Positions 19,332 to 31,169 are shown, counted from the first letter of the stretch. The stretch is 64,000 nucleotides of DNA from Prochlorococcus sp. AG-363-O16 (GCA_003280095.1 QCGA01000004.1:151-64150); one strand, 5' to 3'. The notes: generated from the sequence alone by a model not told the origin. A program made the numbers and translations.

Positions 19332-19549
19332 AGGCAAAAAAAAAGACCCTTGCTAAGACGCGGGGCCTGGGTGATGGGGAATCTTTTTTCTAAGAGCAAA
19401 TCCCAATAAAAGCAACCCAAGTACTACTGGTGGTGTATTAACTTAAAATTAGGTAAAGGCAAATCTGTATCTAGTGTTATGGAAGGCATGGTTGCTTCAG
19501 ACTCTCATTAAAATCTCTACAGGTTGGGTGATGGGGTAATTGTTCGGCC
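19332..19549 (+). repeat. GGTGATGGGG-box module, copy A (two boxes: 19369-19378 and 19527-19536)
   Basis: It aligns along its length with copy B. Box 2 is flanked by the pairing arms GGTTG (19522-19526) and CGGCC (19545-19549). Confidence 0.75.
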
Positions 19550-19575
19550 TTTATTCCTTCTCTCCATAAATTGCT

Positions 19576-19977
19576 TTAGTCACTTTTTTTCTCTTTGTAC
19601 GCATGTCCTAAAAGTGGTTCAAGTCCAGTAACTCTTAAAGCTCCTACTCCTGTCGCCTCTAAGCGCACTAAAGGGGCAATACCATCTTCATAGGCTTGTT
19701 TCCACCTTGGGGCGCATAAACACCAGTGGTCACCTGGTCTTAGCCCTGAGAATTCATATTCAGGCATTGGTGTGGTCAGGTCATTGCCTTGTGCCTTGCT
19801 GTAAGTCAGAAAGGATTTCGTCATTACGCAACAGACAGTATGTTGTCCTAAATCTGTGGCGTCGGTTTTACAGAATCCATCCCTATACCATCCGGTCAAT
19901 GGCTCACAACTGCAAAGTTGTAGTGGCTCTCCTAATACGTTGAGAATGTCTGTTGATTTTGGGTTGCTTTTTGTCAT
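19576..19977 (-). CDS. conserved DUF2237-like protein
   Basis: ..NVLGEPLQLCSCEPLTGWYRDGFCKTD..GQHTVCCVMT..FL.YSKAQGNDLTTP..GLRPGDHWCLCAPRW.. matches my recollection of that family. Confidence 0.8.
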   Translation of the reverse strand: MTKSNPKSTDILNVLGEPLQLCSCEPLTGWYRDGFCKTDATDLGQHTVCCVMTKSFLTYSKAQGNDLTTPMPEYEFSGLRPGDHWCLCAPRWKQAYEDGIAPLVRLEATGVGALRVTGLEPLLGHAYKEKKSD

Positions 19978-22463: not shown

Positions 22464-22607
22464 ATATAATTGATTTGTTTAATTTCTGATTATCCATAGA
22501 TTGAGGATTCTAGTTTCATATGACTATGGAAAATTAAAGTTCTTTCAAAGTATTTCTGTTCTTATTCGCTGTATTGCTTTTATTAAAGATTCCTCGATCG
22601 ATCTTTT

Positions 22608-22672
22608 TGATGCTTGATGCTTGATGCTTGATGCTTGATGCTTGATGCTTGATGCTTGATGCTTAATGCTTG
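22608..22672. repeat. heptanucleotide microsatellite (TGATGCT)x8 plus one degenerate unit
   Basis: Eight perfect units run from 22608 to 22663, followed by TAATGCT. The tract is intergenic. Confidence 0.95.
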
Positions 22673-22779
22673 TCAAAGTGCATTTGGCTTCTTTTATAGA
22701 GTTATTGTGTTGTAGATCAATTGATCTATTTTAAGAGGTTAATAGCATTACCTGGCAATTAATTATCAGCAAATAATAA

Positions 22780-25548: not shown

Positions 25549-25722
25549 TTACTTGACGTAGCTAACACCTCTATAAGTAAGTTCGGAATTTACATTGCTT
25601 CGGGTTCTGGCTCTGCATGTGTTGTAGTGCTCTCGACGATAAGTGAGTTCAACACATTGTTGCTGCGCTTGAGCCTCTTTGTGCTGGACATAGTCATGTC
25701 CACGGTATAAAAGTGTAGTCAT
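25549..25722 (-). CDS. 57-aa YRG-repeat protein (DUF4278-like), candidate glutamine-riboswitch-controlled peptide
   Basis: ATG at 25722 and TAA at 25549-25551. Sequence MTTLLYRGHDYVQHKEAQAQQQCVELTYRREHYNTCRARTRSNVNSELTYRGVSYVK, with three L.YRG/R..Y repeats. It falls below the track cut-off. Confidence 0.6.
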   Translation of the reverse strand: MTTLLYRGHDYVQHKEAQAQQQCVELTYRREHYNTCRARTRSNVNSELTYRGVSYVK

Positions 25723-25740
25723 AATTCAGAGTCCGAAATT

Positions 25741-25804
25741 GGCCCAAGTCCCCGTTCCTTGGCTTGGGTCGAACTGCGCCTCGCCCATCAACGAGGTGAA
25801 CGCT
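25741..25804 (-). promoter_or_regulatory. glutamine riboswitch-like aptamer (glnA / Downstream-peptide type)
   Basis: Minus-strand RNA: AGCGUUCACCUCGUUGAUGGGCGAGGCGCAGUUCGACCCAAGCCAAGGAACGGGGACUUGGGCC. P1 is CGUUC/GAACG, the hairpin is CCUCG/CGAGG, and the pseudoknot helix is CCCAAG/CUUGGG. It ends 18 nt before the ATG of a short ORF. Confidence 0.65.
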
Positions 25805-25807
25805 TTG

Positions 25808-26572: not shown

Positions 26573-26793
26573 AGGCAAGAAAAAAGACCCTTGCGAAATC
26601 CGCTGGGCCTTGGTGATGGGGTGACCTGTTTTTAAGGCAACTGATCACAAAATCAACCCCCACCATAAGTAGTGTTTGAACTTGAAGATAAGTAAAGCCA
26701 AATCTATATATGGTGTTACGAATACATGGGTAGCCCTTGACATTGATTATTATTTTCCACGTGGCCGGGTGATGGGGATCAGTCGGTCTGCCC
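26573..26793 (+). repeat. GGTGATGGGG-box module, copy B (two boxes: 26613-26622 and 26769-26778)
   Basis: It aligns with copy A. Box 1 is closed by GCCTT (26608-26612) and AAGGC (26635-26639). Box 2 is closed by GGCCG (26764-26768) and CGGTC (26785-26789). Confidence 0.8.
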
Positions 26794-26860
26794 AATGGGG
26801 GATATAGCCTTTAGATCCTGTCTTGAGGCTTCCTCCTGGTTCTTTATTGATCGAATGCCA

Positions 26861-27034
26861 TGAATCTTGGTTTACTTTTCCTTAATTCCATTTCTACAGG
26901 TGTAATAACCAAAGAGGAGATGGATTGGATTACTAGACATCAACGTGAGTTCTCAAGGATAGAAGAAGCTACAGCACTAAAACTTGGAAGGCTTTTAGAT
27001 AAGGGCTTGATCCATCTAGGCTGTCGAATTTGAG
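26861..27034 (+). CDS. 57-aa hypothetical protein (..EEMDWITRHQREFSRIEEATALKLGRLLDKGLIHLGCRI)
   Basis: ATG at 26861 and TGA at 27032-27034. It falls below the track cut-off. It starts 83 nt after box B2. Confidence 0.4.
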
Positions 27035-29548: not shown

Positions 29549-29637
29549 CCCTATATATAGTGGTTACTACTCATGACGAGTGTGGATGCTGACGTTAACT
29601 TTGGCTCGATGGTCGGGTGATGGGGGTCAGTCGGCCT
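29549..29637 (+). repeat. GGTGATGGGG-box element, copy C (one box: 29616-29625)
   Basis: It matches the second half of modules A and B (CTATATATAGTGGTTAC..CATG..). The box is closed by GGTCG (29611-29615) and CGGCC (29632-29636). Confidence 0.75.
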
Positions 29638-29705
29638 AAAATGAAAGGGCAACTCCATGGTGGATAACTAAGGAGTTCCTCTGAAATTCTTTAGGGGGTA
29701 GTGCA

Positions 29706-29813
29706 ATGCTAACTTTCGACCGACTCAGCCGTTCCGAAATCGTTCACGGAAGGGTCGCTATGGCAGCCTTTCTGGTGATTGCTTTGTTTGAATTAATCAA
29801 GTTACAGATGTAA
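29706..29813 (+). CDS. hli: 35-aa one-helix high-light-inducible protein (HLIP)
   Basis: ATG at 29706 and TAA at 29811-29813. SEIVHGRVAMAAFLVIALFE carries the ExxHGRxAM chlorophyll-binding motif of the CAB/ELIP/HLIP family. It falls below the track cut-off. Confidence 0.6.
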   Translation: MLTFDRLSRSEIVHGRVAMAAFLVIALFELIKLQM

Positions 29814-30074
29814 GGAAATATAGGCTTCACGGCTTTTCTCTGAAGCAAATCCCTCGGGTTTTGTAGGCCATTTAATTTAAGGTTTTCTTTTAAGACCAAA
29901 TTAGATCACCTTGACATGGAGATGGCTAGGTATAAAGGCCTAGGTTCGTTGCGATTTTTGGCCTAATAAACTGTTCCTCGGGCAATTAAATAAAGACCTT
30001 TAACTATTTTGCTCAGATGAATTCAGTCGCATGTAGGGTTCATGGCGTATTTACGCCTTCAGCTCTTAAAAGTT

Positions 30075-31169
30075 ATGCAGACGTATGGAAATCCAAACCT
30101 CACGTACCCGTGGTGGGTTGGTAATTCTGTAGTCACCAGCAAGTCAAGCCGATTCATTGGTTCGCATGTTGGTCATACAGGTTTGATTGCTTTCAATGCT
30201 GGTGCCATCACTCTTTTTGAGCTAGCACGCTTTGATCCTTCATTGCCCATGGGCCATCAGGGATTGATCTTTTTGCCTCATTTGGCTTCTATCGGAATTG
30301 GTTTCGACGAAGCTGGTGTCTGGACAGGTGTAGGAGTTGCCTTCATTGGTGTTTTCCACTTGATCTGTTCAATGGTTTATGCAGGTGCAGCACTTTTGCA
30401 TTCACTTGTGTTTAGTGAGGACACTCAGAACAGTTCAGGTCTATTTGCTGATGATCGCCCTGAGCACCGTCAAGCCGCTAGGTACAAGCTTGAATGGGAA
30501 AATCCAGACAACCAGACTTTCATTCTTGGACACCATTTACTTTTCTTTGGTGTAGCAAACATCTGGTTTGTTGAATGGGCAAGAGTTCACGGAATCTATG
30601 ACCCATCGATCGAGGCAGTAAGACAAGTTGCTTACAACCTCGACTTAACCCAAATTTGGAACCATCAGTTTGACTTCCTTGGCATTAGTAGCCTTGAGGA
30701 TGTTATGGGTGGTCATGCATTCTTAGCCTTTTTCCAAATAGGTGGTGGTGCATTCCATATCGCTACTAAGCAAATTGGTGAGTACACCGAGTTCAAGGGT
30801 TCAAATGTTCTTTCAGCAGAAGCAATCCTTTCTTGGTCACTTGCAGGCATAGGTTGGATGGCAATCATTGCTGCTTTCTGGTGCGCCACTAATACCACTG
30901 TTTATCCTGAGGCTTGGTACGGAGAGACTCTCCAGCTTAAGTTTGGGATTTCACCATATTGGATAGATACAGTTTCCATTACGGATGGACCTAGTGCTGC
31001 ATTTGGTCATACCAATCGTGCTTGGCTGACCAATGTTCACTATTACCTAGGGTTCTTCTTTATCCAAGGTCATCTGTGGCATGCTATCCGCGCTTTAGGT
31101 TTTGACTTTAAGCGTGTTGTTGGAGCAGTAAGGAACTTGGACAATGCATCAATCAAACTTCAAGATTGA
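30075..31169 (+). CDS. pcb: divinyl-chlorophyll a/b light-harvesting protein Pcb (CP43/IsiA family)
   Basis: MQTYGNPNLTYPWWVGNSVVTSKSSRFIGSHVGHTGLIAFNAGAITLFELARFDP.. is a canonical Pcb N-terminus. Six TM helices. The track ORF starts 33 nt earlier. Confidence 0.95.
   Translation: MQTYGNPNLTYPWWVGNSVVTSKSSRFIGSHVGHTGLIAFNAGAITLFELARFDPSLPMGHQGLIFLPHLASIGIGFDEAGVWTGVGVAFIGVFHLICSMVYAGAALLHSLVFSEDTQNSSGLFADDRPEHRQAARYKLEWENPDNQTFILGHHLLFFGVANIWFVEWARVHGIYDPSIEAVRQVAYNLDLTQIWNHQFDFLGISSLEDVMGGHAFLAFFQIGGGAFHIATKQIGEYTEFKGSNVLSAEAILSWSLAGIGWMAIIAAFWCATNTTVYPEAWYGETLQLKFGISPYWIDTVSITDGPSAAFGHTNRAWLTNVHYYLGFFFIQGHLWHAIRALGFDFKRVVGAVRNLDNASIKLQD

Follow-up and report, generated by a model that had tools for sequence, protein, structure and literature searches.

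Two conserved plus-strand RNA hairpins, boxes B2 and C, lie upstream of small open reading frames (ORFs) in a 64,000-nucleotide stretch of DNA from Prochlorococcus sp. AG-363-O16 (the window, meaning the whole stretch analysed; 39.7% G+C, taken from a 1.35-Mb assembly of 45 contigs and 64% completeness). We propose that these hairpins are modules of the Yfr23 family of small RNAs (sRNAs) that serve here as 5′ leaders and would be targeted by a second sRNA, Yfr22, a reading to which sequence comparison leads us to assign a probability of about 0.55. The boxes are most likely part of an RNA-against-RNA control module rather than the ligand-sensing leader that had been suggested when the DNA was first examined (the sequence-only reading).

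The core 10-mer of the boxes, GGTGATGGGG, occurs five times in the window, at 19370, 19527, 26612, 26768 and 29616 (copies A1, A2, B1, B2 and C), always on the plus strand. Across the whole assembly there are two further exact 10-mers, in unrelated contexts on contigs C12 and C18, and the only element-type copies in the 1.35 Mb are the five in the window. A genome-wide mobile repeat was rejected as an explanation, the genome holding merely five box copies, all of them local. B2 and C also have a 21-mer in common, for which shuffled sequences give an expectation of zero matches. An alignment of modules A and B, copy C and 19 related loci from relatives (22 modules) splits the boxes into type 2 (A2, B2 and C) and type 1 (A1 and B1), both of which contain the 10-mer. 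The type-2 box is a 26-nt hairpin in the plus-strand RNA, GGCCG-GG-UGAU-GGGG-AUCA-GU-CGGUC. In 24 sequences, 95.4% of its cells are paired and three pairs are changed on both sides; the hairpin is assigned to the plus strand because its 28 G.U cells pair only there and would be A.C on the opposite strand. Type 1 is a G+C-rich hairpin with a U-run that can be read only on the minus strand, where alone some 20 G.U cells occur; its GACCC/GGGCC and GGCCC/GGACC stems contain mismatches when read on the plus strand and wobble pairs when read on the minus strand. The minus-strand RNA runs from AAGUU through CCCCAUCACCC and a single A into a terminator hairpin and UUUUUU, with the seed single-stranded, as is classic for the 3′ half of trans-acting sRNAs. 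Two covariance models were used to search for the boxes, R1 for the type-2 hairpin (built from 24 copies) and R2 for the type-1 unit. The boxes and the elements around them are as follows:

26763..26788, plus strand: box B2, a hairpin of Yfr23 type (core GGTGATGGGG, 26768-26777); R1 score 45.4 bits (26758-26793).
26682..26716, plus strand: promoter-like motif P1 upstream of B2, TTGAAG-N17-TATATA-TGGTGT, from the alignment of 22 modules.
26737..26753, plus strand: hairpin-proximal element of B2, CTTGACA-N5-TATTAT, with the P2 -10-like hexamer at 26748-26753.
26797..26836, plus strand: second hairpin of the B2 leader, predicted by folding, GGGGGA..AGCCU-loop-AGGCU..UCCUCC.
26860..27033, plus strand: hypothetical 57-aa ORF of the PM-15 family, with 296 homologues at E <= 0.001.
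29611..29636, plus strand: box C, a hairpin of Yfr23 type (core 29616-29625); R1 score 43.3 bits (29606-29641).
29552..29563, plus strand: P1-type motif of C, TATATA-TAGTGG.
29596..29601, plus strand: P2-type -10-like hexamer of C, TAACTT.
29647..29680, plus strand: second hairpin of the C leader, predicted by folding, GGG-AACUCC-loop-GGAGUU-CCU.
29706..29813, plus strand: gene for a 35-aa one-helix HLIP (Pfam Chloroa_b-bind, E = 4.6e-6).
19522..19549, plus strand: box A2, a degenerate hairpin of Yfr23 type (core 19527-19536) whose loop has a 2-nt insertion; R1 score 33.5 bits (19517-19554).
26574..26661, minus strand: B1, a Yfr22-type sRNA gene; R2 scores 66.4 bits at 26574-26630.
19333..19418, minus strand: A1, a second Yfr22-type sRNA gene, its seed the complement of 19370-19379; R2 scores 71.8 bits at 19333-19388.

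In box C, the stem GGUCG/CGGCC preserves its pairing through a U.G wobble. The seed of B1, CCCCAUCACC, is the complement of 26612-26621, its terminator hairpin that of 26586-26609 and its U-run that of 26580-26585; by analogy, its 5′ end would lie near 26657-26661. No Pfam or NCBIfam model matches the 57-aa ORF, and one of its UniRef homologues is named 'Protein family PM-15'. The distance from core to ORF is 82 nt in B2 (core end 26777, ORF start 26860) and 80 nt in C (29625 and 29706), the same gaps that the sequence-only reading had given, apart from placing the 57-aa ORF start one base too late, at 26861. Measured from the 3′ foot of the hairpin (26788 in B2 and 29636 in C), the gaps are 71 and 69 nt. 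Downstream of the box, B2 and C are identical at 30 of 69 positions, a weak likeness that 23 of 1000 shuffles equal in score, and their equal length therefore points to shared architecture more than to recent duplication. A2 has the upstream layout of the other two and is followed by the 3′ end of a convergent gene, both as claimed earlier: a DUF2237 gene (19576-19977, minus strand) ends at 19576, and no ORF stands behind the box. That A2 once had a cargo and lost it is plausible; it is the most degenerate copy (33.5 bits compared with 45.4 and 43.3).

The names Yfr22 and Yfr23 presumably come from Voigt et al. 2014 in the ISME J. In MED4, the two sRNAs measure 80 nt (Yfr22) and 67 nt (Yfr23), and transcribed homologues have been tabulated (Lott et al. 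2020, PMC7368042, Tables S2 and S5); MED4 Yfr22 is located upstream of PMM0981 (PMC6778093 supplement). Matches of our two models fall on such loci, as listed here with the published coordinates (PMC7368042):

R2 in MIT9301: match 915203-915254, published Yfr22 915176-915251.
R2 in MIT9312: match 918769-918821, published Yfr22 918740-918827.
R2 in MIT9312: match 1131104-1131149, published Yfr22 1131103-1131215.
R2 in NATL2A: match 997377-997435 (plus strand), published yfr22 997364-997487 (plus strand).
R2 in NATL2A: match 1083673-1083730 (minus strand), published yfr22 1083548-1083768 (minus strand).
R1 in MIT9301: match 1082056-1082091, published Yfr23 contig 1082054-1082185.
R1 in MIT9312: match 1131234-1131268, published Yfr23 contig 1131235-1131381.
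R1 in NATL2A: match 1084233-1084266, unnamed 71-nt plus-strand contig 1084228-1084299.

Because the matches coincide with published Yfr23 and Yfr22 loci, we assign A2, B2 and C to the Yfr23 type, and A1 and B1, by the same comparison, to Yfr22, of which they are ordinary members. At the NATL2A locus 1083548-1083768, 613 minus-strand reads have been recorded and the plus-strand contig has 13 (PMC7368042). The invariant loop GGGUGAUGGGG(A/G)U and the covarying stem found at published Yfr23 loci are present in B2, C and A2, and a ~67-nt RNA ending at an intrinsic terminator straight after the hairpin is found at none of the three. In A1 and B1, the single-stranded CCCCAUCACCC immediately precedes a G+C-rich terminator hairpin and U-run, on the strand published as transcribed, and neither gene differs in structure from Yfr22, with its same succession of seed and terminator. 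Yfr23 shares with the window boxes its hairpin, with loop GGGUGAUGGGGAU, and a promoter-like motif (..TAGTGY..), but it ends at an intrinsic terminator, whereas B2 and C are without one and appear to run on into the PM-15 and HLIP ORFs; the window lineage also has ~40 extra nt (CTTGACA-N5-TAnnnT) between the upstream motif and the hairpin. Rfam scans of the window and 10 related loci, by gathering threshold and by E-value, returned no family for either box type. Identity with Yfr2/Cyano-1 (RF01701) was rejected, the covariance-model matches lying elsewhere in SS120 and in genomes G000, G005 and G019, with none in the window region. A search for a phage origin found no match among 50,697 phage records, literature searches by sequence string returned nothing relevant, and the literature examined contained no published function for Yfr22 or Yfr23.

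In Prochlorococcus, Yfr22-type and Yfr23-type units lie on opposite strands. In Cyanobium and Aphanothece, relatives from fresh and brackish water, a Yfr22-type unit (CCCCATCACCC followed by a terminator) lies ~120 nt upstream of a Yfr23-type hairpin on the same strand (L065:4940-5090, L072 and L075), a layout that argues for the Yfr22 unit being an independent transcription unit that travels with its partner. An exact 15-mer scan of all GTDB genomes, in which nearly all matches were chance occurrences in unrelated phyla, contributed three useful Cyanobium/Aphanothece loci, and counts of the 10-mer in high-GC Synechococcus are inflated by matches in coding sequence and are no evidence of copy number. 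At SS120 1,409,512 (L024, minus strand), a box variant, GACCGGTGATGGGGGTCAC, forms a short hairpin outside the recognized modules.

To ask what follows the Yfr23-type hairpin, ~115 type-2 loci from marine picocyanobacteria were classed by the sequence downstream of the box. PM-15 homologues of the 57-aa ORF (MNLGLLFLES..GVIT.EEM.W...) stand behind it in 24 loci, including those of SS120, MIT9211 and NATL2A, and HLIP genes in at least nine, at 73-94 nt; by eye there are four more of the latter, one at 133 nt. The SS120 box and its PM-15 gene lie around 1,363,000-1,363,250 on the minus strand, and the MIT9211 locus is near 1,300,400. Cassettes of box, leader and small ORF do recur, then, and more than by chance. 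The same hairpin fronts PM-15 and HLIP genes, in support of the earlier claim that the leader is shared and not the cargo. The spacing is not maintained in other genomes: from the start of the box core to the PM-15 ATG there are anywhere between 49 and 98 nt, most often about 65 or about 90, so the distance seen in the window is a mode rather than a constant. A third small ORF (MGEAKRRKEQ..., 41-62 aa, very basic) is found at 125-130 nt, behind complete terminators in 4 of 4 loci from four genomes (L003:1800-2000, L015:1178-1300, L230 and L237). The remaining type-2 copies, the majority, are stand-alone units, mostly terminated intrinsically. The classes compare as follows:

Canonical hairpin and U-tract terminator: 54 of 78 unclassed loci, 4 of 24 PM-15-linked loci, 3 of 9 HLIP-linked loci.
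Yfr22 gene ~155 nt upstream: 49 of 78 unclassed loci, 3 of 24 PM-15-linked loci, 2 of 9 HLIP-linked loci.

The second hairpin of the B2 leader occupies the terminator position of its stand-alone relatives, but its U-tract is broken (UGGUUCUUUAUU) and UCCUCCUGGUUCUUUAUU comes after the hairpin; that of C is at the same position and is followed by CUGAAAUUCUUUAGG, with no proper U-tract. At A2 there is none at all. A promoter and terminator scan called no canonical terminator after either. Some PM-15 loci have merely ~25-40 nt (up to 45) between hairpin and ATG, and 25-40 nt leave no room for a separate promoter and leader. Taken with the scarcity of terminators in PM-15 loci, these short gaps mean that the ORF must be transcribed through the box.

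An alternative is that each of B2 and C is a normal Yfr23 gene, standing alone and stopping at the second hairpin, while the ORFs have promoters of their own or are leaderless and the recurrence reflects co-inheritance in island cassettes. Most copies are indeed stand-alone and terminated (54 of the 78 unclassed loci), all four MGEAKRRKEQ ORFs begin after a complete terminator, at +125 to +130, B2 and C each have a hairpin at the terminator position, and several PM-15 copies with short spacing preserve a U-rich tail. We nevertheless consider mere adjacency unlikely: a canonical terminator is absent from 20 of the 24 PM-15 loci, hairpin-ATG gaps of 25-45 nt are too small for a promoter and leader, our scan finds no promoter-like site between box and ATG in B2 or C, and linkage is preserved across many genera where the intervening sequence is not.

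Two peaks of TAnnnT hexamers suggest where transcription of the proposed leaders would start. Such hexamers are found at -59 to -54 from the box core in 80 of 93 loci (P1, the TATATA region, with full motif TTGAAG-N17-TATATC-TAGTGT in relatives) and at -20 to -17 in 90 of 93 (P2); between these peaks and downstream of them, the background is 0-5 per offset. In high-light strains the two positions coincide, because the ~40-nt CTTGACA-N5 insert is absent. On this pattern, transcription would start upstream of the box, at P1 or P2; a start at P1 would place the box ~45-50 nt into the transcript, and one at P2 would put the hairpin at its extreme 5′ end. The published 71-nt environmental NATL2A contig begins 15 nt before the box core (PMC7368042). 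The TATATA elements proposed earlier as -10 sequences are both present (26705-26710 and 29552-29557) and lie within a position-conserved promoter-like motif, but the P2 hexamer is the more conserved of the two. The simple scan for sigma-70 promoters and terminators misses both the promoter-like motifs and the bulged Yfr22 terminator. Sites for NtcA or CGRE1 (PMM1637) were rejected for the promoter region, their motifs being a misfit, and an HLR1/RpaB reading of CTTGACA-N5-TAnnnT is unconvincing, the second half-site being too weak. A micro-ORF, ATGACA...GGGTGA, was rejected as coding since the distance from TTGACA to GGGTGA varies by non-multiples of 3 in the other subfamily. In the type-2 subfamily with ATGACAAA (loci L007, L011, L012, L013, L015, L018 and L020), a frame of 14-15 codons, ATGACA...GGCCGGGTGA, ends at the TGA of the box, is open in 7 of 9 copies and has 3-nt length differences.

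The proposed link between the boxes and Yfr22 is complementarity. The Yfr22 seed can form 12 contiguous Watson-Crick pairs with the Yfr23 loop, and four more past a one-base bulge. The seed-only duplex is worth -26 to -35 kcal/mol, compared with -14.5 kcal/mol for the hairpin alone; seed-only duplexes were used in place of full-length ones, whose energies relative to shuffles were uninformative (the duplexes being unrealistically long). The box recurs across the start codon (AGGAGGCCAGGGUGAUGGGGAUCCCUCUGGAAUCU) of a conserved sigma-70-family gene that neighbours ppk, again in a similar hairpin (site AGGAGGCCAGGGTGATGGGGATCCCTCTGGAATCT; L034:729-1751, SS120 1,722,728-, L159-L173 and L177). In 15 of the 17 box-carrying genera it is identical at synonymous sites over the first seven codons, right after which the protein diverges, and the region upstream of the gene carries AGTGCTAA, as Yfr23 promoters do. 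In genomes G008, G010 and G023, where the sigma orthologue has no box-like start, and in G009, where it is degenerate, R2 matches are weak or lacking; G011 has a sigma-factor box with one mismatch, and R2 is present. The complementary seed and the sigma-factor site together lead us to read the box as an sRNA docking site.

In the mechanism that we envisage, transcription would begin upstream of the box at one of the two position-conserved promoter-like elements, and the RNA would fold into the 26-nt hairpin, its loop displaying the invariant GGGUGAUGGGG. The second hairpin, an intrinsic terminator in stand-alone Yfr23 genes, would here have lost its U-tract, letting RNA polymerase read into the ORF. 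The box would be a docking site for Yfr22-type sRNAs, two of which (A1 and B1) are encoded on the opposite strand of the window itself, and the single-stranded Yfr22 seed UCCCCAUCACCC, directly 5′ of the terminator, would pair with the hairpin loop. Pairing would then affect the message downstream, through its read-through, stability or translation, or else Yfr22 would be titrated by the leader. From the complementarity we infer that Yfr22 and the box pair in the cell, with attenuation, decay, altered translation or sponging as the probable consequence. A bolder version, which we put forward tentatively and regard as doubtful, is that the primary target of Yfr22 is the start-codon hairpin of the conserved group-2-type sigma-factor gene (AGGAGGCCAGGGUGAUGGGGAUCCCUCUGG); Yfr23 RNAs and the HLIP and PM-15 leaders would be copies of the target site that act as decoys or co-regulated targets, and the synthesis of stress proteins would be coupled to translation of the sigma factor by competition for one sRNA.

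Several observations weigh against leaders targeted by Yfr22. The box core is invariant, and there is thus no covariation between seed and target to prove the pairing. A Yfr22 gene adjoins just 3 of the 24 PM-15-linked copies, so regulation would have to act mostly in trans. The second hairpin retains a U-rich tail in several ORF-linked copies, some of which may terminate efficiently and have an ORF with its own start. The CTTGACA-N5-TAnnnT element, found in ~90 related loci, has a perfect -35 hexamer only 5 nt from the -10-like hexamer, an abnormal spacing for sigma-70. Finally, the sampled genomes are mutually related and non-independent, and the counts of co-occurrence are descriptive only: R1 has matches in 66 of the 151 genomes sampled from the family (40 of 64 genera; 1-7 copies per genome), R2 in 132 of 151 (60 of 64 genera; 1-10 copies), and every R1-bearing genome is also R2-bearing (66 of 66).

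The hairpin could instead be a protein-recognition element, or one that stabilizes the 5′ end against RNase E or J, with the complementarity to Yfr22 secondary. A start at the P2 hexamer, present in 90 of 93 loci, would place the hairpin at the extreme 5′ end, as such an element requires; an invariant loop on a covarying stem is also what sequence-specific protein recognition yields, and the same hairpin on the start codon of the sigma-factor gene is typical of translational repressor sites. This account leaves unexplained why the exact complement of the loop should stand as a single-stranded seed before the terminator of a separate sRNA, why the gene for this sRNA lies ~155 nt away in as many as 49 of 78 loci and why every hairpin-bearing genome has it. 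No candidate protein was identified, and we hold this explanation to be improbable, about as much so as simple adjacency.

Far weaker is the idea of a riboswitch-like cis-acting leader that senses a metabolite or physical signal and uses the second hairpin as an expression platform. The generic layout of conserved 5′ element, variable terminator-like hairpin and ORF would suit it, and a true riboswitch (Glutamine-II) lies 1 kb away. However, an RNAalifold consensus from the upstream motif through the box contains just the single hairpin, with no multi-helix junction or pocket, and the pair counts likewise support one short hairpin and not a multi-helix aptamer. The second hairpin is always present, but its sequence is unconserved and no conserved alternative pairing between it and the box was found. 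Rfam has no matching family, most copies lack a gene that they could regulate, and the invariant nucleotides are exactly those complementary to Yfr22. The ligand-sensing leader of the sequence-only reading is accordingly unsupported: the structure amounts to one hairpin of 26 nt, with an invariant loop that complements an sRNA encoded nearby, in a unit that is mostly a stand-alone terminated sRNA. We think such a leader very improbable. A type I toxin-antitoxin-like pair, with the small hydrophobic ORF as toxin and the divergent Yfr22 as a short-complementarity antitoxin RNA acting on the 5′ UTR (untranslated region), recalls tisB/istR and zor/orz in that the module B sRNA is divergent and has 12-16 nt complementary to a long structured 5′ UTR, but it is hardly credible given that one cargo is an HLIP, a chlorophyll-binding photoprotective protein, that PM-15, a conserved single-copy family, usually lacks a neighbouring Yfr22 (3 of 24 have one), that Yfr22 is near-universal and multi-copy irrespective of these ORFs, and that the same box sits on a sigma-factor gene.

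For the proposed Yfr23-type leader targeted by Yfr22, the closest working analogue is the relationship of Yfr1 and Yfr10 to Yfr2-5, sRNA families with complementary ultraconserved motifs, single-stranded in one and exposed in the other (PMC2518516; PMC6778093). The genes for Yfr10, 12 and 18 adjoin those for Yfr2, 4 and 5 (Steglich et al. 2008, PMC2518516; Lambrecht et al. 2019, PMC6778093), and crosstalk or sponging between Yfr1 and Yfr2 has been proposed and partly shown (PMC2518516; PMC6778093). Complementary ultraconserved motifs and often adjacent genes are common to that system and to Yfr22 and Yfr23, but the motifs differ (ACUCCUCACAC/GUGUGUAGGAG there and CCCCAUCACCC/GGGUGAUGGGG here), the Cyano-1 (Yfr2) genes lie elsewhere in these genomes, and here the Yfr23-type partner would double as an mRNA leader. 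Short-complementarity type I loci such as istR/tisB and zor/orz, and sRNA control of the rpoS leader, share with the arrangement predicted here a divergent sRNA whose pairing site is in a structured 5′ UTR, well before the small ORF. Yfr22, unlike the RNAs of istR/tisB and zor/orz, is a widespread multi-copy regulator with other likely targets, and toxicity of the cargo is unsupported. What would be new is that B2 and C, Yfr23-family hairpins that are not followed by the terminator of a 67-nt sRNA, appear to serve as leaders. Statements of the seed-loop complementarity, of the link to HLIP and PM-15 genes or of the sigma-factor site were not found in the literature examined; Voigt et al. 2014 may mention them.

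Other features of the window lie apart from these modules. A pcb gene is at 30042-31169. A Glutamine-II riboswitch (25549-25805, minus strand; 69.7 bits) stands in front of a 57-aa DUF4278 ORF; in SS120, its counterpart has been published as Yfr6 and is separated from the 6S RNA gene by a Yfr22 gene. An intergenic spacer at 22607-22679 holds approximately nine tandem TGATGCT heptamers, and two tandem 69-nt copies at 576-713, 94% identical, are probably a repeat inside coding sequence.

Protein regulators are very scarce in Prochlorococcus, and sRNAs of unknown function are numerous. Two of these sRNAs, named and uncharacterized, gain concrete, testable wiring from the present analysis, and the hairpin of one of them, Yfr23, appears to be reused in dozens of lineages as a 5′ leader for genes of high-light-inducible and PM-15 small proteins. 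If the pairing is true, it would constitute a second network of RNA-RNA crosstalk besides Yfr1/Yfr2, one that ties light-stress proteins to sigma-factor control, and sRNA genes and mRNA leaders would be interconvertible through the loss or gain of a terminator U-tract.

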